Shown: positions 12,883 to 63,933 of the stretch, piece by piece | How the letters are laid out: every line of letters begins with the position of its first letter | How positions within the stretch are numbered: the first letter of the stretch is position 1 | Sequence record: PQ850622.1 | Reading direction: 5' to 3' (one strand) | From: Escherichia phage OliverMaurmann_Bas86 | Length of the DNA stretch: 64,000 nt | Notes under the pieces: generated by a model | What the model was told of the DNA's origin: nothing | Database searches by the model: none | Seen by the model: the letters and a program-made list of their open reading frames with translations, nothing else | Made by a program: the position numbers and the translations under genes

Positions 12883-12907
12883 TCTAAGACCTAAGTCCTA
12901 TCTCTTA

Positions 12908-12916
12908 TAATGTATA
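12908..12916 (+). promoter_or_regulatory. candidate phage-specific promoter element TAATGTATA (overlaps a TATAAT hexamer)
   Basis: Intergenic TATAATGTATATAGG about 40 nt upstream of the 12953 ATG; the same 9-mer recurs at 22828 and 22899. Confidence 0.45.
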
Positions 12917-12952
12917 TAGGAGGTAGGACATTTTTATTTATAAGGAGACGTT

Positions 12953-18628: not shown

Positions 18629-19471
18629 TTACCAAGTTTTATCTAACCATGACCAATCAAAGAGGTCACCTTCAGCTTGTCCAACGAAGAGCAATCGAGC
18701 ATTTTCTAACATCTTAGCTTCTGCTTCTTCCTCGAACCTTTTATAGTATTCCATTCGTATAATATGATAAAGAGTCCACTTATCGAATACCTTCTCAATA
18801 AGTTTGATTGCAGCCTTACTACCAATGCCTTTACGACGCATTACTAGATTGCCACCCCACATCATTTCAACCTTCTCACCGCATCCGGGAATGTTATCTG
18901 TGCTATCCCCGATCAGCATCTGGTAGAAGAAGTTCTGCCATGCTACTTCTTCTGATACATAGTGAGGAGGTACTTCTTTCTGTCTCTCCCCGCAAGCCCA
19001 ACGGTAATGCCATCCGGGAGTGATTAACAAGTCTTTATCACGGGTGCAAATGATAGTGTTCTTATCACGTCTCTGTCTTTCAGCTAGGGCATCATCCGCC
19101 TCTCTCCCAAAAACTTCTACGTATTCGTAATTCTCTTTAATGTAATCACTGACATTTTGCCAGTGGTGAGGTCTTTCTCCCGGTGGTCGATTAGCTTTAT
19201 AACCTTGCTGCTTAGCAATATCAAACCGAAAATTACCACCTTCGCTGAAGTAAAAGATTGTTTTCTCACAACCAGACCTTGCAATGATTACATCTATTTT
19301 ATGTTGAAGTCGTTCAATCAAGAATCCATAATCAACTGGAACACGACCTGTGTCTAGAAAAGGATGCTCTTGTGTAAGAGCACCGACTTCATATCGCAGA
19401 ACATCTGCATCCACAATTGCTACTTCAGGATAGATTACATCAGACATAGAGATCTCTCCGTGTCTCTTCAA
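18629..19471 (-). CDS. 5'-3' exonuclease / flap endonuclease (FEN, RNase H-like)
   Basis: GDSTDNIPGCGEKV...GIGSKAAIKLI matches the helix-3-turn-helix region of Pol I-type 5' nucleases; true start may be ATG at 19447. Confidence 0.65.
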   Translation of the reverse strand: MKRHGEISMSDVIYPEVAIVDADVLRYEVGALTQEHPFLDTGRVPVDYGFLIERLQHKIDVIIARSGCEKTIFYFSEGGNFRFDIAKQQGYKANRPPGERPHHWQNVSDYIKENYEYVEVFGREADDALAERQRRDKNTIICTRDKDLLITPGWHYRWACGERQKEVPPHYVSEEVAWQNFFYQMLIGDSTDNIPGCGEKVEMMWGGNLVMRRKGIGSKAAIKLIEKVFDKWTLYHIIRMEYYKRFEEEAEAKMLENARLLFVGQAEGDLFDWSWLDKTW

Positions 19472-20036
19472 TAATCCACTCTAAATCATCAACTGCCTCT
19501 TCTACAGAACGGTCATTAAAGAGGAGGTAGGTTGGTAGGTTTGTTCCTTCAATATAAGAACGGGAGTCCCCTTCAAAGGAGCAGCCATCTCGGAGAATCT
19601 GAACTACTCGAACATAGAAGTGTTTCTCTAGTTCTTCAACTTCAGCTTTGAACCCACCATCAGAGAAGACGATAACATCATTCTGTGATGGGATACGTTG
19701 TTGAATACTGCTAACAGCAAGTTTACCCATGCAGGTCTCACCAAACATAGGTTTCAGATAATCCTCACTAGTTGCAATCATCAAGTCTCGAACTGACTTA
19801 CCGCCCCATTCAGGACGGATATGTTCTTTCCACTCACGGTCGTTGTACAGCTCCATGAACTTATAAAGAGGGAGACCTAATGCAGCAGCAGCCACCCGAT
19901 ACATAGGCTCCTTAAAAGCCTTTACATGCGGTCTAAACTCAGTGTTACCAGCGGTCTTCTCTAACCAAGCATTAGCGATTGTATCTTTACCACAACCCGG
20001 AGGTCCATTTAGAATTACTACTAATGGTTTACTCAT
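19440..20036 (-). CDS. P-loop nucleotide kinase (dNMP kinase-like)
   Basis: Walker A VVILNGPPGCGKDT; overall layout resembles T4 gene-1-type dNMP kinases. Confidence 0.5.
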   Translation of the reverse strand: MSKPLVVILNGPPGCGKDTIANAWLEKTAGNTEFRPHVKAFKEPMYRVAAAALGLPLYKFMELYNDREWKEHIRPEWGGKSVRDLMIATSEDYLKPMFGETCMGKLAVSSIQQRIPSQNDVIVFSDGGFKAEVEELEKHFYVRVVQILRDGCSFEGDSRSYIEGTNLPTYLLFNDRSVEEAVDDLEWIIEETRRDLYV

Positions 20037-20686
20037 TATTGAATCATCCCTTGAAGATCTTCTTTATCAAAGTGCTTCTCTACTACCGCTTCATACAGAT
20101 CACGATTCTCCGAATAACGGCGATAGAAGGTTCCGTGTGAAATTCCCAGCTCTTGTTGGATGTGATCATGAGGAATACCGAGGAAGAGCATTGAGAACAT
20201 ACTTGCCATCTTGCGGTTTTCCATAATATCACTTAGGTCTTGGAAGAAGAAAAAGATTCTAGATTCCAAGAATGGGTCTCCAGTAGAATCATGCTTATCC
20301 ATAGCAATCTCTAAAGGACTTTCCCATGAATTCATCTCGGGAGGTCTAAACATATCAGCCTCTGGAATAGAATAGATACGTCTGTCTCCAACTGTCTGAC
20401 GATTAGAACGAATCGACCAGATGATATTCTTCACACGATAAGTCATGTGTTCAATATCTTTTTCATCGGTAAGCAGTAGTTCTTCTTGCTTTGCAAATAC
20501 AAAACGCCAAGAGTTCAGTAACACTTCCTGAGCAACATCCTCTGCTTCGTGATAATCTTTAATGTCGTACATAAAATACTTATGCACAACTTTCCAATTC
20601 TCTCGATAGAATTCATCGAAGGTTGGGTAGTACTTAATAGGTATGCCATGAATACGATAGCGTGTGGGTGTTGTCTTTTTCTTCAT
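20036..20686 (-). CDS. phage-encoded sigma factor (ECF-like sigma-70 family)
   Basis: Region-2-like [13 protein letters not shown] and C-terminal region-4-like [18 protein letters not shown]. Confidence 0.6.
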
Positions 20687-20710
20687 AAGTCATCCTTAAC
20701 TTACTTTACA

Positions 20711-20935
20711 TTAAACTACACAGAATAAATACATTGCTGTTTCAGGGGAAGGTATGTGGTCACTAGGATATCTAACCCTAATCCACTCATCATCTTCTGC
20801 TACATAATAAGCCCAATAAGACCCATTTTCATTAATAAAGAACTTGAAGGTACAACCAAAGATTTGGTTATTGTGTTCCCATACTGCATGAAACTGAGTA
20901 ACACCTTCTGGTATTGTAAGTTCCGCTCTGATCAT
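20711..20935 (-). CDS. hypothetical protein
   Basis: 74 aa ORF. Confidence 0.3.
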   Translation of the reverse strand: MIRAELTIPEGVTQFHAVWEHNNQIFGCTFKFFINENGSYWAYYVAEDDEWIRVRYPSDHIPSPETAMYLFCVV

Positions 20936-21198
20936 TGTATTCCTCTCTCCTTTAGAGCTTTAAGCAAACCGTTGTGGTTAGCGGCACAGGTTGTATAATT
21001 GTCCTGATACCACTCGAGTGTTGTTGCAAGTGCTACTCCCTGTCCACTCTGAAGTAAAGGGAGGTCTACATCACATTCAGCTTTTAGGTTTGTTGGTAAG
21101 GGCATTAGCTGCCTGCTGTTGTCGCTCGTTGAACAAGCCATCAAACTAGAAGCGAGCAAAATCACCAAACAACTCTTTTGCTTTTTCTTTGTAAGCAT
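20932..21198 (-). CDS. lipoprotein (o-spanin-like candidate)
   Basis: From internal Met: MLTKKKQKSCLVILLASSLMAC with lipobox-like SLMAC, then Pro/Cys-containing mature part. Confidence 0.4.
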   Translation of the reverse strand: MLTKKKQKSCLVILLASSLMACSTSDNSRQLMPLPTNLKAECDVDLPLLQSGQGVALATTLEWYQDNYTTCAANHNGLLKALKERGIQ

Positions 21199-21496
21199 TT
21201 TCTGCACCTTCTTGAGTGCTATGATAACCAAGCCAAATTACTTTGTTTTGATATCCGATACGAGCACTCCATTTATTAATATCTGACCTGTATCCTACAC
21301 CTTTTATTCCAGTTAAAGAGTTCTTTTGAACTATTTTATTGGCATTGTTGAGGACAGGTGTTGCTTTTCTTAGATTGCTCCAAGAGTTATTAGACTTATC
21401 TAAATCTTTATGGTCTATTTGGAAATCGGGAATTTCTCCAGTTTTTATATACCAAGCAACTCGGTGAGCTTTGTATGTCTTTCTCTGAAAATTCAA
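21146..21496 (-). CDS. HNH homing endonuclease with AP2-type DNA-binding domain
   Basis: HRVAWYIKTGEIPDFQIDHKDLDKSNNSWSNLR (HNH) and GYRSDINKWSARIGYQNKVIWLGYHSTQEGAENAY (AP2-like). Confidence 0.6.
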   Translation of the reverse strand: MNFQRKTYKAHRVAWYIKTGEIPDFQIDHKDLDKSNNSWSNLRKATPVLNNANKIVQKNSLTGIKGVGYRSDINKWSARIGYQNKVIWLGYHSTQEGAENAYKEKAKELFGDFARF

Positions 21497-21627: not shown

Positions 21628-21969
21628 TTAATTCTTTAATTTCAGTGCCTCCGCTGCTTGTTGTTGTCGTTCATTGAAAAGTCCTACATACTCATCACTA
21701 GCACACACATTGTAAAAAACTGGCTTAGTCTTTTCATAATGCATCTCTTTGTAAATAGTTTCCGTGTTCTTCTTCCAGTTAGATAAACCAGTCAGAACTT
21801 TCTGAGCCACTTCATCAGCAGCCTTAGCTCTCTCAACCTCAATCTCTTGCTGTTTCTTCTCTTGGTCAAGAGCATTACTATCACTTCTGTATTGCTCAAA
21901 CTTGACACCACCAAAGAAAACCAGAGCTGTGAAGATTAAAAAACCTATATTGTTTTGAAGCTTTTCCAT
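21628..21969 (-). CDS. membrane-anchored coiled-coil protein (i-spanin-like candidate)
   Basis: Start taken at ATG 21969 (MEKLQNN); TM IGFLIFTALVFFGGV then Glu/Lys/Gln-rich helix. Confidence 0.4.
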   Translation of the reverse strand: MEKLQNNIGFLIFTALVFFGGVKFEQYRSDSNALDQEKKQQEIEVERAKAADEVAQKVLTGLSNWKKNTETIYKEMHYEKTKPVFYNVCASDEYVGLFNERQQQAAEALKLKN

Positions 21970-21980
21970 TTTAACTCCAA

Positions 21981-22004
21981 CGAAAAAAGCCACCCGAAGG
22001 TGGC
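21981..22004 (-). terminator. rho-independent terminator (reverse strand)
   Basis: On - strand AGCCACC-TTCG-GGTGGCT followed by TTTTTT. Confidence 0.6.
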
Positions 22005-22027
22005 TAAGCTATTACAAGGAGAGATTC

Positions 22028-22768
22028 TTAGAATGGGCTATCATCTTCTTCAAAGGTTGATTGCGGCTCTTCGTTAATGGTAGGAATACTTGGAGTAGCA
22101 TCTTTCTGTTCAGTGTCAGAAGCTTTAGTAACTTCACGACCAGCCAGAGGGATATTCTTAGCATCGTTAGCTTGAGTCAAGAGGTTACGTTGGAATGGGA
22201 AGATTGCTTGATAAGCAGCTAAGTTAGCGTCAGTCTCAGCATACGGTTCGAAGAAGATCAACTCACTACGAGGAGCACCTACCGCGTCACGATATTTAGT
22301 CGGGATTGGAGTGATGCTTTTAATGGAGTTTTTCTTCTCACCAGCTTTATTGGTGTAAGAGTTAACCAGAATGTTAACAGGCTGACCTAACAGCATATCT
22401 TTAAACCAACCCAAATCACCTTTCAGTGCTTGAACACTTGGGTCGATCATTTTAATCAGATTTAGAATACCAGAGTTCTTAGCTCGTGGGTTTACATCAA
22501 AAGATTTAAACTGGCAAGCAGGACGAGGGTCCAGAGGTTTGCCTTCATTATCAGTCCCTGTTGCATCTACGCCAATCAGCTCAAAAGCTAAGTCCATACG
22601 GAAAGCTGGGTTCTTAGGAGTAACTGCTTTGGTTTTAGGGTCAATCCAAGGGTCACGATTGTGAACACCCAAACCTACAACACGAACAATACGTGCTTCG
22701 TACTCACCATCAGGGATTACATCGTAGTTGGATTTACGGGATACAGACAGTTCAGGGATCATAGACAT
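22028..22768 (-). CDS. single-stranded DNA-binding protein-like (acidic C-terminal tail)
   Basis: 246 aa ending ...STFEEDDSPF, resembling the acidic tail ending in Phe of SSBs; has its own promoter-like element. Confidence 0.45.
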   Translation of the reverse strand: MSMIPELSVSRKSNYDVIPDGEYEARIVRVVGLGVHNRDPWIDPKTKAVTPKNPAFRMDLAFELIGVDATGTDNEGKPLDPRPACQFKSFDVNPRAKNSGILNLIKMIDPSVQALKGDLGWFKDMLLGQPVNILVNSYTNKAGEKKNSIKSITPIPTKYRDAVGAPRSELIFFEPYAETDANLAAYQAIFPFQRNLLTQANDAKNIPLAGREVTKASDTEQKDATPSIPTINEEPQSTFEEDDSPF

Positions 22769-22827
22769 ATTAATATTTCCTTATATAGATTTAAGATTGT
22801 TGCTCTCTTTGAGCGGTTTGTATACTA

Positions 22828-22836
22828 TATACATTA
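22828..22836 (-). promoter_or_regulatory. candidate phage-specific promoter element TAATGTATA (reverse strand)
   Basis: - strand reads TAATGTATATAGTATAC about 60 nt upstream of ATG 22768. Confidence 0.45.
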
Positions 22837-22898
22837 CACTTATACAGATAAGGTTCTATTATACTATAACCTTTTTGGTAGTAGATAATGACAAGTAG

Positions 22899-22907
22899 TA
22901 ATGTATA
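22899..22907 (+). promoter_or_regulatory. candidate promoter element TAATGTATATA (forward strand, divergent from 22828)
   Basis: GTAGTAATGTATATATGG on + strand; no + strand ORF downstream. Confidence 0.35.
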
Positions 22908-23103
22908 TATGGTATAGCTAGTAAAGCTATTGCAGGCTTGTATATTGGGCAATCATTGTAACCCTTGCAAGTACCGAAGGGCAGGAGACACCTGCGAGAT
23001 AAAAATAGAGAATTAAGGAATCCTTGATTTAGGTTGTGGGGACTCCTAGGGACTTTGATTCTCTATTAAAATCAAAAGAAAACTTAACTTAAAACAATAA
23101 CTT

Positions 23104-23742
23104 CTACCATTCTAAAAGACCTTTAAAACTAGTTTGTTCTACTGTTCTCTGATAAGGTAAGTTAGATTCTGCTTGTTTGCTTAGCATCTCTTGTACTTTA
23201 TCAGTAATTGGATAATCTTTTTGTAATAAAGAAGCTACCCACTCTTTCCTACTTTCCAGCTCTTTTCTAATTTCTTGCAGAGACACAGCTCTGTAATCAA
23301 TTTGTTCCATAGAGGTACAAAAATATCTCCAATCTTTGATAGTAGAATTATGAGTATGAGCATAGATATTATACTTTCCTCTCATTTCATCAGAGTGAAT
23401 AGGGATATGAGTTACCCAAAATTCTTTGTATTTATAATCACCACTGATGTGTCTAAAGACTTTCATCATATCAGGTAGAAGTTCTAATCTATCATGGTTC
23501 CCTAAGACAAGATGTTTCTCTCCCTTTATTTCAGCGATAATATCAAGTGCATACTTCTCAAACACCCAGTCACCTGTAAAGAAAGTTTTATCACGTTTAG
23601 TAACATGATCAAACGCTGCTAAGATAGCTTTATCATGTTCTTCAATACTACTAAACTTCTTCCTAAAGTTACAGATATTACGATGGCCTAGGTGACCATC
23701 ACCTGCAAAATAAACTTCAGCCACTTTCGTATGTGTCCTCAT
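23104..23742 (-). CDS. metallophosphoesterase (calcineurin-like phosphatase)
   Basis: Motifs AGDGHLGH, FTGDWV, LGNHD, AHTHN. Confidence 0.65.
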   Translation of the reverse strand: MRTHTKVAEVYFAGDGHLGHRNICNFRKKFSSIEEHDKAILAAFDHVTKRDKTFFTGDWVFEKYALDIIAEIKGEKHLVLGNHDRLELLPDMMKVFRHISGDYKYKEFWVTHIPIHSDEMRGKYNIYAHTHNSTIKDWRYFCTSMEQIDYRAVSLQEIRKELESRKEWVASLLQKDYPITDKVQEMLSKQAESNLPYQRTVEQTSFKGLLEW

Positions 23743-25723: not shown

Positions 25724-27571
25724 TTAGTGAGTGTGATTCCAGTTTAACCCAATCTTACAATCAGATGCAAGAGGACATTCCATTTTGAGGTATTCACCTG
25801 CTTTACGAACACACTCTTCAGTGAGGGTACGAAGTTTGTTAACATCGTCACGATGTACAGTGAACTGGCCTTCATCATGCATGTCAATAACCTTCGCACA
25901 ACGAACACCATCACGCTCAATCCATTTATTAAGGAATAGCATTGCATACTTCATAACAATCGCCCCAGCGCTCTGTAAGAGAGTGTTTAAGGCTTTATGA
26001 ACCATAACCTTTCCAGTTGCATCTCTTCTCATTGTAATACGACGTCCATCCACACCGTAGATGTATCCACTTTGTGCTTTCTCTGTCATACGTTCAATAA
26101 GAATTGCAATACAAGGATTCTCTGCTAAGAATCTTGCCCTCATGACAGCCCCTTCATCAGAGCCACCACCTACGATGCTTCCTAACTTAGCGTCACCAGC
26201 TCCGTAGTTGAATGCATAGATAAACGTTTTAGCATTATCACGAGTAGGAAGGCCAGCAAGTTTTTGGTTATGTGAGTGAATATCTCCTTCTAAAAGAATA
26301 TCTCTGTACATAACAGCAGAAGCTAGACCGCGTTCAGCTTCTCGTTTCTTAGCTGGGTTGTTTTCCTGCTCTGCTTCAGCGAGCATCTCACGACATTCTT
26401 TGATAAGGTAATGAGCAAGCATCCTCAGCTCAAGACCAGAGCCATCGTAACCTAAGAAGATTTCACGACCAGCAGGTACATAAAATTTATAAGCACCTAT
26501 TGGTTTGTCTTTCTTGCCCGGTTTTCCCATTTCGTAGATAATGTTAGTACCCTTTCGTACGTAACACCCATCAGGGATATGGTTGGTAATGATGAAAGGA
26601 TGGTTATGACTATCGTCTGAGGAATAGTCAGATTGAAAAAGACTGCGGCACTCGTGACCAAACAAACCGCGAGAAGGAATATTAACAACAATGCGATGTT
26701 TAAAACGAAATGTCGGAGTAGCGCAGCTATTAGCTTCGGCGGACAACTTACCATCTTTACGTTCCTTGTCGATAAGCCCGCTAATCAAACCTAGCCTGTG
26801 AGCCGCTACAACGCGTCTCTTAAGCAAACTTCCTACACCCCCTAGCTCACCCCCAAGCCCCTCTTCAAGAGTCTCCTCAAGGTTTGTAGGGGCTGTAGGC
26901 CACTTGTTTGATGTAGCCAAAGCTTTTTTGATTTCATCAAAGGTTACAGGCTTCTTCCTATTAGGGTTGAGACCTAAACCGCTGACATAGGCTTTCATAT
27001 AATTGACAGTGTGATAACGGAAGTGCTTATCCAAAAACCTTCGGATATCAGCATCTATCATCTCTGCTGTCTGTTTCTCTTTAGCGTTACCTCGAATCCA
27101 AGCAGAATACCATGCAGAGTATGTACCATACTTCTTCATAGCTTTACGAATTTCAAAAGTATTCCAAGGTTTCTTAGAATAATTCCACTCTGGAGGTATA
27201 AAACCTTCATCCATCAAGGCTTCTTTGATACGTGCATCTTTTGATGGGTCAAAGTCTACATACTCAACGCAAGTAAACGCCCCACCGATATCTTCTCTTT
27301 TAAGACCAACCCTATCACAATAGAGTTGAGGCCACTTCTGCAAAGCACCGGACTTCTTAAAAGGTTTAGAATAAGTTGAACCATCCACCCGCATTTTGGG
27401 GAGGAGAGGAATCAGTTCTTTATCAATATTGACAATAATCTCTTTGAGAAGATGAACAAACCACCGAGCGTTTCTTCTGTTGAAGTTGACTCCATGCTTC
27501 GCCTGTTTTGAGATTATATCAGCGACTGTCATCTCCGTTATGAAAGGTAACTTATCAGGGTTATCCATCAC
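25724..27571 (-). CDS. DNA polymerase, family A, polymerase domain only
   Basis: Motif A YDGSGLELRMLAH, motif B RDNAKTFIYAFNYGAG, motif C VIDMHDEGQ; no exonuclease motifs in this ORF. Confidence 0.8.
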   Translation of the reverse strand: MMDNPDKLPFITEMTVADIISKQAKHGVNFNRRNARWFVHLLKEIIVNIDKELIPLLPKMRVDGSTYSKPFKKSGALQKWPQLYCDRVGLKREDIGGAFTCVEYVDFDPSKDARIKEALMDEGFIPPEWNYSKKPWNTFEIRKAMKKYGTYSAWYSAWIRGNAKEKQTAEMIDADIRRFLDKHFRYHTVNYMKAYVSGLGLNPNRKKPVTFDEIKKALATSNKWPTAPTNLEETLEEGLGGELGGVGSLLKRRVVAAHRLGLISGLIDKERKDGKLSAEANSCATPTFRFKHRIVVNIPSRGLFGHECRSLFQSDYSSDDSHNHPFIITNHIPDGCYVRKGTNIIYEMGKPGKKDKPIGAYKFYVPAGREIFLGYDGSGLELRMLAHYLIKECREMLAEAEQENNPAKKREAERGLASAVMYRDILLEGDIHSHNQKLAGLPTRDNAKTFIYAFNYGAGDAKLGSIVGGGSDEGAVMRARFLAENPCIAILIERMTEKAQSGYIYGVDGRRITMRRDATGKVMVHKALNTLLQSAGAIVMKYAMLFLNKWIERDGVRCAKVIDMHDEGQFTVHRDDVNKLRTLTEECVRKAGEYLKMECPLASDCKIGLNWNHTH

Positions 27572-28503: not shown

Positions 28504-28519
28504 TTATATTAACTAGAGC

Positions 28520-28798
28520 TTAAAGCTCCTTTGCGACCGCCTGCTGATTTTCCAGCACGATCTCCACTTTTGCCGCCGTTCGAGCGATTTCGAGAGACTG
28601 ATTCAACACGTAAGTTACTTGACGCATTAGAACCTCCCGACTTGATTGATCGTTTATGTCCAACGTCTTTACCTCGGACAGCAGCTTTTCCATCGCGCTT
28701 TTCAACGATGCGACGTGCACGGTGGCGCTGAGCATCTCCGCTCTTGCTACCAACACCTGTCTCCCCACGTTTGATTGCGGTACGTCTTTCTTGCTCAT
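28520..28798 (-). CDS. hypothetical helical protein (alternative overlapping frame 28509..28823 also open)
   Basis: 92 aa helical-looking product; the other frame gives a basic low-complexity product. Confidence 0.3.
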   Translation of the reverse strand: MSKKDVPQSNVGRQVLVARAEMLSATVHVASLKSAMEKLLSEVKTLDINDQSSREVLMRQVTYVLNQSLEIARTAAKVEIVLENQQAVAKEL

Positions 28799-28812
28799 AA
28801 TCTCTTTTCGCC

Positions 28813-29193
28813 TTATCCGTCATTGTTAGTTATCCTCTGATTGAAAGTGTGAATTGCGTGGCAGTTAGCGCAGAGGATTCTGCACTTCTTCATCTCTGCC
28901 TTCACTTGAGAAATTGATCTCGTGTGACCTTGAGATAGCTCAAAGGATTTTTCAGAGGGGTTAATATGGTCAAACTGGAGAGCAGAAGCGTGTTCTTTAT
29001 AGCCACACAGAGAGCATCCGTAAAAGGTTTTAACTCTTCTGATGAATACTAATTGTCGATTTCTTCTCTCTTCATTGTAAAGCCTACGCTTCTCCCTATT
29101 AGCTGGGTCCGCGTACCTGCACCTGTCTGAACAGTATTTTTGAAATACAAACCTCTTCTCAAATACTTCTTGACAAGTAGGACAAACATCCAT
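28813..29193 (-). CDS. HNH endonuclease
   Basis: Cys-rich N-terminus, FDHINP...CANCH. Confidence 0.5.
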   Translation of the reverse strand: MDVCPTCQEVFEKRFVFQKYCSDRCRYADPANREKRRLYNEERRNRQLVFIRRVKTFYGCSLCGYKEHASALQFDHINPSEKSFELSQGHTRSISQVKAEMKKCRILCANCHAIHTFNQRITNNDG

Positions 29194-29268
29194 GTTACTA
29201 ACTCCTCCTTAAAATCCTTATAGGTAAGTACATTACATAGCATCAAGCACAGCTATCATATGCTACTT

Positions 29269-33443: not shown

Positions 33444-33774
33444 CCCCTTCTAAGTTAGTTGAATTAGCTACATTACGAGCAATGTTATCCATGACCTGCT
33501 GGGTAATAACAATGCAATTCTGTGGGTCTACAGACTTAGAACGCCCCATTTCAGGGTCATAAACCTTAACACGCTTGGCTGTTGAGCCAGTAACTTGCAA
33601 CACTTTGAGAAGATAACCTTGGTTTCCAATAGACCATGCAACAACATCACGATTCTTGATATAACGACCAAGCATATCACGATGATAGAACTGCTGCATA
33701 ACTTTAGCTTTGCTAATCTCTTCAGATGGCGGGGCCACTTTACTCAAATCTAACATAACTCTCTCCTGTTTCAT
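33427..33774 (-). CDS. hypothetical protein
   Basis: 115 aa ORF. Confidence 0.3.
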   Translation of the reverse strand: MKQERVMLDLSKVAPPSEEISKAKVMQQFYHRDMLGRYIKNRDVVAWSIGNQGYLLKVLQVTGSTAKRVKVYDPEMGRSKSVDPQNCIVITQQVMDNIARNVANSTNLEGDAPNA

Positions 33775-33826
33775 ACAATATTCTTATACTGTATATACAT
33801 TTGAGAGTTATCATATCTACTACCAA

Positions 33827-36227: not shown

Positions 36228-36229
36228 TT

Positions 36230-36778
36230 CTACATTTTCCAGTTGAGAGATGGGGGATTCTTATAATCAAATCCAGCCATTTGGCAAAGACACATGTAAA
36301 CCTTAACTGTCAAGTTAACGTCTTGTTCACAATACGTGAACATGTCTTCAGTGAAAGCATCCCATGCTTCTTCCTGTTCACCATAGTCACCCTTCAGCTC
36401 TCCCAGAAATTCGCCCCATTGCTTGAGGCCATGACCGCGAGGTCCGTGTCTAGGGTCGCCTTTGGGATATTCTGGACTGTCACCAATACGGTCAGGCTTG
36501 AGGTATCGACTCAGGCACAGGGTATCAAAGACATTAAAACGAAAAGGTATCACATGAGAGTAGAATTTAAACAAAGCAGGAAGGTCAAAATCAATAATAT
36601 TGTGACCTATTACTACATCAGCTTCTTTCAGTTTGTGTAGTGCTTCTTCAATTTGGTGAGGGCGATACCCCCACCGTTCTCCAGACAGTACATCAAATAT
36701 CCATATACACCAGACATTCTGAATACCATCATAGAGGTTATCACCTTCAATATCAAACGCATACAGTTTCTTTACCAC
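36230..36778 (-). CDS. 3'-5' exonuclease (DnaQ-like DEDDy), separate from the polymerase gene
   Basis: Exo I FDIEGDNL, Exo [14 protein letters not shown], Exo III YCEQDV. Confidence 0.65.
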
Positions 36779-38562
36779 GGACGTGCCTCCCCTTCTTGTG
36801 AAAGTAAGGAAGCTGCATCTTCTCCGTTGGTGACTGTAAACGGATTATCTTCATCAACTTCATGATCTTCTCGTTCCACAAGACGACCTGTTTCGTTAAT
36901 GTATTTGGTATAGCAAACCCCTGTCTGTCCATAGTTACGCTCTTTGAGCAGACGTATGATTGACAAGTTTTTACCTAACCCATCCGCTTGTTTATTACGT
37001 TCGAAACCGATAATACATTGACACCAGCGCATTAATGAACGTGAGCCAGTAAACTGTACTTCTTTAACCTGACCACCTTCTTCGTGAGGGGCACCGCCCG
37101 CCGGAGCATTCAAGTGAGATAACACAAAAGCAGTGAAGTCTAATTCCTTACACATACCAGCAAGCTCTGAAGCAATCTTACTGATTTCTGTATTCACTTC
37201 GGATGGAGTTAAGTGAGATACCAATGCAGTGATGTTATCAAGAATGATAAATTTACACTGATTCTCAACTACCCAAAAGCGAATACACTGCTTAATGTCT
37301 TCCCATTCGTTCTGCCCAAAGTTGTCATACAAGAAAAACTTATCAGCGTATCGAAGTGCTTCATCTCGTAGCTGGCTTTCTTCGTACTCAACATCTGGTC
37401 GGTGGAAAGGTACAGATGCTGACTTACCTGCAATGTTCTTAACAGACATGCCTACCTTCTCTTCCAAGAAGAAGCCACCACCATTAAAACCATGCTCAAG
37501 GCAAAGCCATGCTACCAGTTCGTGTGCGATTAAGGTTTTACCTGAACCAACACCACCGCCGATTGCAACCATCTCTCCCCAACGAATACCGAAAGTCATG
37601 TCGTTAAGAGTTTTCCACGGATAAGGGATACCCCACTCCGCTTTCTTCAGAGCATCTTCAAGGCAATCAAAAACTGTAACAGCGCCGGCAGGAGATTCCC
37701 GCTTAGCTGAATATTTCAGATTGTTGAAAAGCTCTTGACCTCTCCCTGCAAGTAACATGTCGTTTGCATCTTTGATTTCCTTTTCTTGTCCGTTATAAGT
37801 GAACGTACCTTTTGGAATTCTTGCAAACTTGACATGTGGGTACAGAGAACGACCTTTAGTCAATGCAATCTCTCCTGCATCATCATTGTCCATGCAGAGT
37901 ACAATCTCCTCGAAACCATTAATAAAATCACGATTTCTTGACAACACAGAAGAGATTGAACCTGCACCGAACGGAAGAGAGACACAAGCAGGTTTGATAT
38001 TAGTTGCGTTTGTGAACGCAGTAAGTACGTGGAATCCAGACATACAAGAGAGTGGGTCTTCGAAGATGAAGAGCTTCTTATTGTAAACATCGCCACGTTG
38101 TGCTTGAGCCATACCAAATAAGTCGGCTTCTTTCACATTACCTACATAATAGAACTTCTTGCTGTCTAGAAGTTTTACTTCATATCCAACAATATTCCCA
38201 TCACGTTCACGAGGGAAGAAGTAGCTGTCAGGAGTTTGACCGTCTGTTTGACTTAAACCAATACGGCATCCATAACGTTCAGATACAGCTTTAGGAATTA
38301 AGCGACGAGTCAATTCTCCCTGAGGAAGCTCTAAGCAATCGTCTAAGACTTCTCGGAGTTCTTCAGGGGACAGCTCTTTCTTTTCATTAGGGGTGGGCGT
38401 CGTTCCTTTCTCGAAGATTTCATACGCACCACATCTGTTACATGAACCCCACTCCTCACCGGACTCTTCATTTCGGAAGAGAATCATGTGATTGCGGGTC
38501 TTATCACGACCATGAGAGATACACTCTTTACAGCCCGTGTCTCCCAAAATGATCTTTGACAT
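36772..38562 (-). CDS. DNA primase-helicase (T7 gp4-like)
   Basis: N-terminal zinc ribbon [10 protein letters not shown]...CNRCG; helicase Walker [10 protein letters not shown]. Confidence 0.8.
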
Positions 38563-39288: not shown

Positions 39289-39474
39289 TTATTCTACTTC
39301 GAAGTGTTTGATCACACCAGTCAACACATCAGATTGGAATGTACCCACTAGCTCTGTACCTCGGAAGAAGTTAACACTTGTTCCAAGTGATTCAAAGCGA
39401 TCTGCTTGAATGTCCAGAGATTGAATATTTCCTTCTGCTGACATTGTACGAAACATGATTGTGTATTTATTCAC
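39289..39474 (-). CDS. hypothetical protein
   Basis: 61 aa ORF. Confidence 0.3.
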   Translation of the reverse strand: MNKYTIMFRTMSAEGNIQSLDIQADRFESLGTSVNFFRGTELVGTFQSDVLTGVIKHFEVE

Positions 39475-39713
39475 AGACTTGTTACTCCCTTATCTGCTTG
39501 TGCAATTGCGATGATACGCTCAGCACATTCCATTGAATATTTATCACCTCGTTTGAGGAAGGTGATGATTGCAGAGAACTGATTACCAATCATTCTCTTA
39601 TTTGTGATACCGAACTCTTCACAGAGTTGGTTGATAGCTTTACGAGAGCCTACAATCAGAGGCTCTTTTTCTTCGGTCATTCCACGGCTGATCAAATCTT
39701 CGATAGACAACAT
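39471..39713 (-). CDS. hypothetical protein
   Basis: 80 aa ORF. Confidence 0.3.
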   Translation of the reverse strand: MLSIEDLISRGMTEEKEPLIVGSRKAINQLCEEFGITNKRMIGNQFSAIITFLKRGDKYSMECAERIIAIAQADKGVTSL

Positions 39714-44636: not shown

Positions 44637-45259
44637 AATGATTCCACCAACTCTACATTATATGATGACAGGTCTGAAGAAATATGCTTGAACTTCTCCA
44701 GAAGGTTTAAAGATTGACGACCATTGTCGCCATAACCAGCTTCAAGAAGCACGTTTCCAACGTAAGCCCCTTTGTAATAAACTTTTCCATCGACAGGATT
44801 GATATAGATGAAACGAGTAACCAACCCTTCAAACTCTGGATTAAACAGGTTGTACACCAATTCACCCGGAATCGAACGACCGAGAGAAGGAGGTGCACCG
44901 CGAAGTTTGTTTCCCATCAAACCTTTAGCTCTCTGACGAACAGGGTTGATATGGGTCCAGCTCACCATGTTATTGCCATGCTGAAGGTATCCTACATCTG
45001 GAGATTCCAGAATAAGGCTGTGATCAAACACTGGTATATTGCTAACAATCTGACGTTCAAACTGACCTTCAGAGTTTTTAGTCCAACGTTCTGCCTCAAA
45101 CACTAAAGACATTTCAGCGTCGTGTGAGTAGTCGTCGATATCAAAGTTACCTTGCTGACGAACATCAAGCACATATAGAGGGAGGTTTTTACCATCAGGT
45201 GATCGCTGAGCAATCCATGTTCCACAATAATAGTGTTGAAAATCTCTTAACAAGCTCAC
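44633..45259 (-). CDS. hypothetical protein in amidoligase module
   Basis: 208 aa ORF, overlaps neighbours. Confidence 0.35.
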   Translation of the reverse strand: MSLLRDFQHYYCGTWIAQRSPDGKNLPLYVLDVRQQGNFDIDDYSHDAEMSLVFEAERWTKNSEGQFERQIVSNIPVFDHSLILESPDVGYLQHGNNMVSWTHINPVRQRAKGLMGNKLRGAPPSLGRSIPGELVYNLFNPEFEGLVTRFIYINPVDGKVYYKGAYVGNVLLEAGYGDNGRQSLNLLEKFKHISSDLSSYNVELVESL

Positions 45260-59440: not shown

Positions 59441-59681
59441 ACATCTAGCCTATCAGGAGGTAACTTACTGCATCGCGTCCTGACAAGATTCAATATACAC
59501 TATCCTAAAACCGTTGCAAGCCTTTTTCTAAAATAATTTCACTTTCTTTTAGGTATAGAGGAACACGCGCACGAATAACATCAAGGGAGGAAGAAAACAA
59601 GCATTATAATCAAAAGCTAGGCATGTAGGAGGCGTTCTAACGAGATAAACAGGGGCAAGATGTGCAATCACCTTAGAAATG

Positions 59682-61166: not shown

Positions 61167-61439
61167 TATTACTACTCCTGATAAATGAAAGATTGTTTGT
61201 CGTGTGTAGTTACTTAGGCTGATCAACCTTCACTACTCACTATCACCGCTAACTACTTTACATCACTGCTTCATTAACGATAATTCAAACTACGATTGCA
61301 ACTATATATTAAAGGAAAAACATGTCAACCACTTATTTTCAAACTATTTCATAAGTCACTGAATATAAAAGGAATTTAATTTACTAAACTTTCTTGTTCA
61401 GAGATACAGCTTACCAAATAGATGTTATTTTATAACACT

Positions 61440-63438: not shown

Positions 63439-63465
63439 GTAACGATAATGTAGAAGGAGTATAAG

Positions 63466-63933
63466 ATGTTTGGAGAAAAAGGAGAACTCACGCCTGCACA
63501 GGTAGCTGAGATTACAGGAAGACTGCCCGGAGTAACGGAAGAACTTGAATCCAAGGGCATGGAACCAAGCACAGGGAAGTTCACTAAAGGTAATAAATTT
63601 GGACGTCCCAAAGGTAGTAGAGGTAAATTGACACAGCTCATGCTCGATCGTGTTGCTGCTAGTCACCTGTCTCCCGATGAAGTGTTGATTCAGATTTATG
63701 AAGATCCAAATATTCCACCTGATCTTAGATTCAAGGCTGCAAGTAAAGTCGCTGATCTGGTATATCCTAAGGCAGCTTCTGTTGAGGTTAAGATTGAGGA
63801 AGAGAATGTAATCAATGAAGAGTCACTGAACGCACAGATTCGAGACTTCTTGACTGGTGCACTGAAAGTGGATGTGCTACCTCCAGAGGACTCTGAGGAC
63901 GCTGAAAAGGAGGAGGAAGCGGACGAGAGTTAA
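63466..63933 (+). CDS. putative DNA-binding protein, possibly small terminase subunit
   Basis: 155 aa with KGNKFGRPKGSRGK basic motif and acidic C-terminus; starts a new operon after a terminator. Confidence 0.3.
   Translation: MFGEKGELTPAQVAEITGRLPGVTEELESKGMEPSTGKFTKGNKFGRPKGSRGKLTQLMLDRVAASHLSPDEVLIQIYEDPNIPPDLRFKAASKVADLVYPKAASVEVKIEEENVINEESLNAQIRDFLTGALKVDVLPPEDSEDAEKEEEADES

Follow-up and report, generated by a model that had tools for sequence, protein, structure and literature searches.

The sigma factor gene and its product

The window analysed here is a 64,000-nucleotide stretch of Escherichia phage OliverMaurmann_Bas86 (record PQ850622.1). At 20036-20686 an initial annotation, made from the sequence alone, had placed a gene for a 216-residue phage sigma factor, together with promoter-like elements for that factor elsewhere in the window. 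The open reading frame (ORF) is indeed present, on the minus strand. Two protein-coding genes are central to the analysis:

20036-20686, minus strand: phage sigma factor of 216 residues, ortholog of phiEco32 gp36 (phmmer, PHROG, alignment)
39471-39713, minus strand: gp79 ortholog, an ORF of 80 residues (tblastn with phi32_79)

Over the 4.4 kb surrounding the sigma gene, identity is 96% to Escherichia phage Bas87 and 94% to SU7. In total, 98 phage records match this region, every one belonging to a phiEco32-like podophage with E. coli or Shigella as host. The gene order of phiEco32 is kept throughout the window, with late structural genes on the plus strand (1 to ~17,400), middle and early genes on the minus strand (~17,700 to ~61,300) and the first genes of the phiEco32 map on the plus strand at the right end. 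Only ~8% of the window is non-coding according to a mechanical ORF map, which includes a spurious 53-residue ORF over 22791-22952 without counterpart in most annotated relatives examined.

Beside the sigma gene, a 74-residue ORF lies upstream (within 20687-20935, minus strand), where phiEco32 has the Appr-1-p (macro-domain) gene 37. On the downstream side, a dNMP kinase gene (within 19440-20036, minus strand) follows directly, without the GTP-binding gene 35.

The assignment of the gene product as a phage sigma factor was borne out. A phmmer search against PDB returned a single match, 9M7Y chain F 'RNA polymerase ECF sigma factor' (E = 2.8e-117), with residues 1-215 of the window protein aligned onto residues 1-213 of the chain. 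The 9M7Y entry is a cryo-EM open complex formed by E. coli RNA polymerase (RNAP) with phiEco32 gp36, gp79 and promoter P68 (PMC12276001). In a global alignment the window sigma is 80% identical to gp36. It also matches PHROG 1740, 'RNA polymerase sigma factor' (E = 9e-43), and its Bas87 homolog carries the annotation 'RNA polymerase sigma factor'. The domain plan consists of a sigma2-like N-terminal domain, a long linker and a sigma4-like C-terminal domain.

We compared the two proteins at the contact residues listed in PMC12276001. The acidic clamp-helix patch (D44, E47, E49, D50 and E54) and the readers of the -10 element (E79, H80, Y83, R84, W90, S91, S94 and N95) are all identical to gp36. 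The two -35 contacts of gp36, Y186 and R187, are likewise identical and correspond to Y188 and R189 of the window sigma. Thus, 15 of 15 clamp-helix, -10 and -35 contact residues are the same in both proteins. In the groove that accommodates the flap tip helix, four of five residues are identical, the replacement of M138 by L140 being the sole swap among the contacts checked.

The peptides initially singled out as ECF-like region 2 and region 4 signatures do belong to helices that touch the RNAP clamp helices and the -35 DNA, respectively, in the gp36 cryo-EM structure. The first is the acidic clamp-contacting helix, and the second, GTFYRRY, holds both -35 contacts. As family signatures they stay below the Pfam thresholds: for region 4 there is no Sigma70_r4 match, just weak DUF1492 and TetR_N helix-turn-helix matches. 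By profile alone, the window sigma is not a canonical member of the sigma70/ECF family. As the Pfam thresholds are missed, both the sigma assignment and membership at the level of the fold rest on orthology to the solved gp36 structure (PMC12276001).

Promoters of the sigma regulon

The promoters served by gp36 in phiEco32 precede genes 6, 13 and 26 (late) and genes 40, 58 and 68 (middle). At these six promoters the gp36 holoenzyme uses a single element, tAATGTAtA, with starts 6-8 nt downstream (PMC8948821, PMC4281155); the similarity to a gp36 consensus that had been pointed out in the initial annotation is therefore correct. The published elements are TAATGTAgA for P6, TAATGTATA for P13, P26, P40 and P58, and aAATGTATA for P68 (Table S3, PMC8948821), and promoter equivalents were described in every phage of the phiEco32 subgroup (PMC8948821). 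The AATG core occupies positions -14 to -11, and -37G and -34A of P68 are reported to be essential contacts (PMC12276001).

The 9-mer TAATGTATA occurs in the window exactly where it had been located, at 12908-12916 (plus strand), 22828-22836 (minus strand) and 22899-22907 (plus strand), and nowhere else. The last copy belongs to an additional element that we call PX, described below. Equivalents of P6, P26, P40 and P68 are found at positions syntenic with phiEco32:

12885-12918, plus strand: P26 equivalent, late, before the gene of the 1481-residue virion protein (exact 11-mer, synteny)
22826-22836, minus strand: P40 equivalent, middle, 60 nt upstream of the SSB-like gene at 22028-22768, minus strand (exact 11-mer, synteny)
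33792-33825, minus strand: P68 equivalent, middle, with the -35 sequence TGGTAGTAGATA at 33814-33825 and the -10 sequence AAATGTATATA at 33792-33802
63446-63454, plus strand: P6 equivalent, late, TAATGTAGA, 12 nt upstream of the gene 6 homolog at 63466-63933
upstream of the window start, outside the window: P13 equivalent

Among the sites listed initially, those at 12908, 22828 and 33794 thus correspond to the published P26, P40 and P68, and the remaining ones match no published promoter. The P6 equivalent was absent from that list.

The P26 equivalent, syntenic with position 26014 (plus strand) of phiEco32 upstream of phi32_26, has its -10 sequence TAATGTATATA at 12908-12918 and the sequence TAAGACCTA at 12885-12893 (-38 to -30). 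The motif and the upstream TAAGACCTAAGTCC are kept in relatives. By analogy with phiEco32, transcription is predicted to start near 12923. For the P40 equivalent, syntenic with phiEco32 36632 (minus strand), the corresponding start is predicted near 22821. Its 9-mer is 100% conserved in 25 distinct relatives, and the 30 nt upstream just 55-64%. The P68 equivalent, with a predicted start near 33787, is kept over its entire 45 nt in five other phiEco32-like contigs. The homolog of gene 68 probably begins at 33756, as judged from its tblastn placement.

The P6 equivalent directly follows a hairpin that, with its T-run, resembles a terminator, and it has both T at -38 and A at -34. Its element is kept as TAATGTAGA in four other relatives, and KBNP1711 has a one-base insertion. 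Were transcription to start ~7 nt past the element, near 63461, only ~5 nt would precede the ATG in the mRNA and AGGAG would be left upstream of +1, making the first gene nearly leaderless.

We next compared the regions upstream of the -10 elements, in registers anchored on the structure numbering of PMC12276001. T at -38 together with A at -34 is present in 7 of 7 phiEco32 copies. All 6 window copies have -34A, and 5 of them have -38T. The sequence TAAGACCTA at -38 to -30 is common to P26 of both genomes and phiEco32 P13, and TGGTAGTAGATA at -38 to -27, which covers the contacted -37G and -34A, is common to P68 and PX. The -38T/-34A pattern fits the reported -34 contact, although with few sequences it is not statistically strong on its own. 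The sequences TAAGACCTA and TGGTAGTAGATA may represent class-specific -35-region elements for the C-terminal domain of the sigma factor.

Candidate sites without support

The one-mismatch variants that had been proposed also exist, at slightly different coordinates, all on the minus strand: TAATGTAAA at 20705-20713, TAATGTAGA at 44652-44660 rather than 44642-44652, and AAATGTATA at 33794-33802, the last being the P68 element. As the one-mismatch class is not enriched in the window (see below), each of its sites needs independent support.

The first two had been listed as lying upstream of the sigma gene itself and of the amidoligase gene, which would imply promoters of these genes. Autoregulation through 20705-20713 and expression of the amidoligase gene from 44652 would agree with the placement of these sites, each a single mismatch away from the motif, on the gene-sense strand and just upstream of a start codon. 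Neither site is conserved, nor does either have the -38T/-34A signature, and both positions are absent from the published promoter tables (Table S3, PMC8948821). In TAATGTAAA the TAA is the stop codon of the upstream 74-residue ORF, Bas87 reads TAATATAAA, which breaks the AATG core, KBNP1711 lacks the motif, and positions -38 and -34 are C and G instead of T and A. The 44652 site lies within a coding region of the early gene block, is conserved only in the close relative ECBP2, has no phiEco32 counterpart and carries C at -34. Both matches are probably fortuitous, to judge from these comparisons, and we consider it very unlikely that they drive the two genes.

There is no evidence of a dedicated gp36 promoter before the sigma gene in the window, the nearest upstream phage promoter being P40. 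According to published analyses, the sigma gene is served by host-type and phage-type promoters alike. One further feature lies between P40 and the sigma gene:

21988-22005, minus strand: intrinsic-terminator-like hairpin, AGCCACCTTCGGGTGGCT followed by TTTTTCG, directly after the SSB-like gene (consensus scan only)

P40 transcripts probably end in part at this hairpin, before reaching the sigma gene.

Another match, AAATGTAGA at 36229 (minus strand), is coding and not kept in phiEco32, and was discarded. Two non-coding one-mismatch matches, TAGTGTATA at 59494-59502 and TAATATATA at 61303-61311, both on the minus strand, are located downstream of TTGCAA/TTGACA hexamers. Judged by eye, their resemblance is to early promoters of the sigma70 type and not to gp36 sites.

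Strength of the sigma and promoter assignments

Orthology, contact-residue conservation, motif statistics, synteny and conservation across relatives were computed here, and RNAP binding, start sites, timing and the action of gp79 are inferred from phiEco32 experiments. Altogether, we estimate at about 90% the probability that the window belongs to a phiEco32-like podophage whose gene at 20036-20686 (minus strand) encodes its own two-domain sigma factor, a gp36 ortholog, with the regulon mapped above.

Several observations weigh against this reading. The count of the exact 9-mer is only marginally significant: 3 copies are observed versus 0.68 expected, a number also reached in 3 of 100 shuffles. 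The one-mismatch class is at background (27 observed, 19.4 expected, with 27 reached in 6 of 100 shuffles). The Pfam Sigma70_r2 score, 15.9 bits, is below the 24-bit cut-off. The P58 equivalent is degenerate or lost. Lastly, start sites, timing and sigma dependence are all transferred from phiEco32, whose sigma factor is 80% identical.

The weak 9-mer count, the background level of one-mismatch matches and the sub-threshold Pfam domains, together with the resemblance of the 59494 and 61303 sites to sigma70 early promoters, could also be taken to mean that the motifs arose by chance in AT-rich sequence or mimic the sigma70 -10 element, and that the ORF codes for a diverged regulator, no longer a sigma factor. 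However, all three exact copies extend to the 11-mer TAATGTATATA, for which 3 occurrences compare with 0.02 expected and none of 100 shuffles reaches 3. Thus, a genome-wide count against expectation, as had been suggested, gives strong enrichment of the 11-mer, modest enrichment of the 9-mer and none of the one-mismatch class. In addition, the confirmed sites are all intergenic and correctly oriented, and their motifs are invariant at syntenic positions in diverged relatives while the flanks drift. The protein itself shares 80% identity with a sigma factor whose open-complex structure is known, and all DNA-contact residues are kept. Existing evidence effectively refutes the explanation by chance matches and a diverged regulator.

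The gp79 ortholog and the proposed transcription switch

The phiEco32 protein gp79 inhibits the sigma70 holoenzyme and co-activates the gp36 holoenzyme (PMC12276001). A tblastn search of the window with phi32_79 identified its ortholog with 76% identity over 80 residues (E = 2.5e-40).

By analogy with phiEco32, the early genes and the first sigma mRNA would be made by the host sigma70 holoenzyme. The gp79 ortholog would then displace sigma70 region 4, shutting off host and early transcription, and would also dock onto the C-terminal domain of the phage sigma factor. In the resulting holoenzyme, the N-terminal domain is predicted to read AATG at -14 to -11 within (T/A)AATGTA(T/G)A, and the C-terminal domain to contact the -37/-34 region, with transcription starting ~7 nt past the 9-mer. 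The regulon would comprise the late promoters at 63446 and 12908 (plus strand) and the middle promoters at 33794 and 22828 (minus strand). It probably also takes in 22899 (plus strand), which would give a structured non-coding or antisense RNA. Binding to the RNAP core and initiation 6-8 nt past the element have been shown for phiEco32 itself only.

An additional divergent promoter-like element

The third exact copy of the motif, at 22899 on the plus strand, is real, although it precedes no gene and faces away from the minus-strand genes. It is part of a larger arrangement:

22876-22909, plus strand: PX, a seventh gp36-type promoter-like element, with the -35 sequence TGGTAGTAGATA at 22876-22887 and the -10 sequence TAATGTATATA at 22899-22909
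22914-23072, plus strand: predicted PX transcript, or conserved non-coding block (alignments, consensus folding)

PX sits 62 bp from P40 in a 335-bp gap between the SSB-like and phosphoesterase genes. This gap matches in all 98 phiEco32-like records found, with no conserved coding sequence annotated there. Phage phiEco32 carries PX too, at 36704 (plus strand), the element and its block spanning 36681-36870 of NC_010324. The -35 and -10 sequences are separated by an 11-nt spacer, and the start site is predicted near 22914. The 12-mer TGGTAGTAGATA is found only twice in the window, in PX and P68, in the same register (-38 to -27). PX has the sequence features of gp36 promoters: its -10 element fits the consensus, and T at -38 and A at -34 stand as they do in P68.

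In 25 distinct sequences compared, which came from metagenomes, IMG/VR and phages in GenBank, the length of the PX spacer never departs from 11 nt. The -10 11-mer and the -35 sequence have mean pairwise identities of 98.5% and 92%, whereas the spacer and the 12 nt upstream average 43% and 50%. This is the pattern expected for a two-part promoter.

The block downstream of PX is confined to phiEco32-like phages. A counterpart was sought in E. coli genomes, and no homolog was found. Rfam searches of the whole window at gathering thresholds, and of 22700-23200 at E values up to 5, returned a tRNA only and nothing credible for the block. One- and two-base indels occur in the block, which makes it unlikely to be coding. 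It starts with a 5' hairpin (22914-22930), followed by a variable middle module that has been swapped wholesale in one lineage, and then by a nearly invariant segment of ~100 nt (~22972-23068) holding a long hairpin built on AATAGAGAAT/ATTCTCTATT. The block also contains a direct repeat, GGGACTCCTAGGGACT, with 10-bp phasing, and a variant of it, GGACTCCTAGGACT, loses one G per copy (22990-23050). As this variant is common to phages with differing flanking modules, it suggests modular recombination across the region.

The first base of the 6-bp 5' hairpin coincides with the predicted +1 (22914). Over 12 distinct sequences the hairpin is 98.6% paired on the plus strand, with compensatory changes at two pairs. 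G-U pairs, which equal A-C mismatches on the other strand, occur in 6 of the 12 rows; these rows are related to one another and therefore represent few independent events.

The conserved structure might instead operate on the minus strand, within the middle-gene transcript, as a terminator, an insulator or an RNase III-type hairpin, in which case the plus-strand element at 22899 would be an incidental or auxiliary RNAP site. The block indeed lies exactly between two minus-strand transcription units, and on that strand a long hairpin, AAUAGAGAAU...AUUCUCUAUU, is followed by an invariant UUUUUAU. Single-sequence folding gives z = -3.15 on the minus strand versus -2.62 on the plus strand, values that do not discriminate the strands. 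In contrast, the consensus fold is better by ~10 kcal/mol on the plus strand for both sequence types (-41 versus -30 kcal/mol for type A, -49 versus -40 for type B). Moreover, the G-U pairs of the 5' hairpin, as well as an A-to-G change of XT32 in an AAGG/CCUU hairpin, turn into A-C mismatches on the minus strand, and the terminator scan made no call there because the stem beside the U-run is AU-rich. A minus-strand function would also leave unexplained why a full -35/spacer/-10 promoter is invariant in the plus direction. We judge it distinctly improbable.

Promoters back to back, a structured block and an AT-rich stretch recall the primary origin of T7 or oriF and oriG of T4. The plus-strand element might thus serve the DNA itself, for example as part of a transcription-primed replication origin, rather than the synthesis of a functional RNA. 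The divergent PX and P40 in a 335-bp non-coding region kept in 98 relatives, the adjoining SSB-like gene, the 10-bp-phased repeats GGGACTCCTAGGGACT and the ~40 bp at 17.5% GC that follow the block (23060-23100) would all be at home in an origin. The invariant segment is conserved beyond the needs of secondary structure. Further on, the sequence downstream of the block varies by lineage, which makes a conserved antisense target unlikely, and neither a terminator nor a target in trans was found for PX within the window. Nevertheless, the compensatory changes and strand-specific G-U pairs of the 5' hairpin indicate selection on an RNA, which a primer would not need. The GC skew tracks gene orientation without a polarity switch at 22.9 kb, and a literature search found no mapped origin for this phage group. 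We therefore regard a DNA-level role as unlikely.

Of these readings, the most likely, from the conservation and folding patterns, is that PX is active and depends on gp36, as a promoter of the P68 (middle) class whose transcript is a structured non-coding or antisense RNA. Points to be set against it are that the terminator scan downstream of PX gave nothing convincing and that, elsewhere in the window, the only stretches complementary to the PX RNA are two 12-mers, which is chance level. PX is not among the six promoters of PMC8948821 or PMC4331800, and it may have been tested by Pavlova 2012. In its full form, the proposal is a tentative one, to which we give slightly less than even odds: a seventh, P68-like gp36 promoter would be used in the middle or late phase to make either a structured non-coding RNA (~150-200 nt) or an antisense RNA of greater length, and the RNA or its transcription would have a conserved role. 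Such a role would be to insulate or process the convergent middle-gene transcript, to prime replication or to act in trans.

The P58 locus and inserted HNH-type ORFs

The sixth published promoter of phiEco32, P58, has at best a vestige in the window:

29227-29235, minus strand: possible degenerate P58 remnant, TAATGTACT, with the AATGTA core, -37G and -34A intact (unconfirmed)

The gene 58 homolog (28509-28823, minus strand) is preceded by an ORF of 126 residues with CxxC and HNH-like motifs (28813-29193, minus strand), for which Pfam gives no match. This HNH-like ORF, with the PhoH-like gene on one side and the gene 58 homolog on the other, occupies the place of P58 and gene 59 in phiEco32 and separates the possible remnant from the gene 58 homolog. 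The homology of relatives breaks just upstream of the 29227 motif, and with a 541-nt query spanning the insertion no phage record covers more than 60% of the stretch, so that the putative remnant cannot be judged by conservation. Phages ES17 and 1-6af have 76%-similar ORFs at the P58 locus, and ES17 is without the P58 motif.

Another insertion affects the spanin locus. An ORF with HNH_3 and AP2 homing-endonuclease domains (21146-21496, minus strand; Pfam 3.4e-14) is located between an i-spanin-like ORF (21628-21993, minus strand) and an o-spanin-like lipoprotein ORF (20932-21231, minus strand), which it overlaps. The annotation of Bas87 has the 'Rz-like spanin' as two pieces joined across the homing-endonuclease ORF; this hints at an intron or at a mobile element lying in between. 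In phiEco32 there is no insertion at this locus. The early region of the window also contains a gene for tRNA-Arg with anticodon TCT (52393-52470, minus strand), matching the single annotated tRNA of phiEco32.

Significance and comparison with known systems

The gp36/gp79 switch of phiEco32 has already been dissected genetically, biochemically and structurally, and the finding of a sigma factor with its promoters as initially presented matters little. As earlier work settled this biology for phiEco32 and expressly included its relatives, it is known and ordinary here; the window adds one more case and a practical guide to the start points of middle and late transcription units. Beyond the literature consulted there are only the corrected promoter map and the conserved extra promoter PX with its downstream block, the latter being one modest new lead. 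If PX is active, the six-promoter list of the model system is incomplete, and a conserved sigma-dependent non-coding transcript would be made in a region kept by 98 relatives. The -38T/-34A signature and the two -35-region sequences (TGGTAGTAGATA and TAAGACCTA) provide testable detail on the C-terminal domain and promoter class, and these sequences bear on the recent cryo-EM claim of essential -35 contacts.

The closest system is that of phiEco32 itself (Pavlova et al. 2012, as cited in PMC8948821), with orthologous sigma (80%) and gp79 (76%), the same motif, syntenic P6, P26, P40 and P68, and an identical P68 -35 sequence, TGGTAGTAGATA. The window differs from it in that the P58 locus is disrupted by the HNH-like ORF, leaving TAATGTACT, and in that no gp35 or gp37 homologs lie beside the sigma gene, with the dNMP kinase gene directly downstream.

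Salmonella phage 7-11 belongs to the same wider group. As in the window, its SSB-like gene is followed by the sigma gene, and a phage-sigma promoter lies upstream of the SSB-like gene. Its sigma factor, SaPh711_gp47, is ~15% identical to gp36 and uses bipartite GTAAtg-N16-aCTA late promoters (PMC8948821). Phage 7-11 has neither gp79 nor a middle gene class. When 7-11-like phages were checked for a co-evolved divergent promoter, the long intergenic region was missing altogether: the ~100 bp upstream of the SSB-like gene hold a single promoter, of the kind these phages use, and lack a conserved structured block.

Like the bacterial group IV (ECF) sigma factors, the window sigma has sigma2-like and sigma4-like domains joined by a linker that threads the active-site cleft, with the N-terminal domain on the clamp helices and the C-terminal domain on the flap tip helix. 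Unlike them, it is sub-threshold in Pfam. In gp36, alpha1 is rotated by ~70 degrees relative to sigma1.2, the recognition helix is shorter and the flap tip helix is repositioned (PMC12276001). Also unlike ECF sigma factors, those of the gp36 type need a phage co-factor for full activity and have no anti-sigma partner.

In phage T4, gp55 is a minimal late sigma factor that consists of sigma2 only and depends on the sliding clamp. In T4 middle transcription sigma70 is remodelled and not replaced, unlike in the switch considered here, and there is no sequence relationship between the two systems. What the gp36/gp79 type of switch shares with T4 AsiA/MotA and gp55 is the timed redirection of RNAP by disabling sigma70 region 4 and imposing a new specificity dominated by a -10-like element (PMC12276001).

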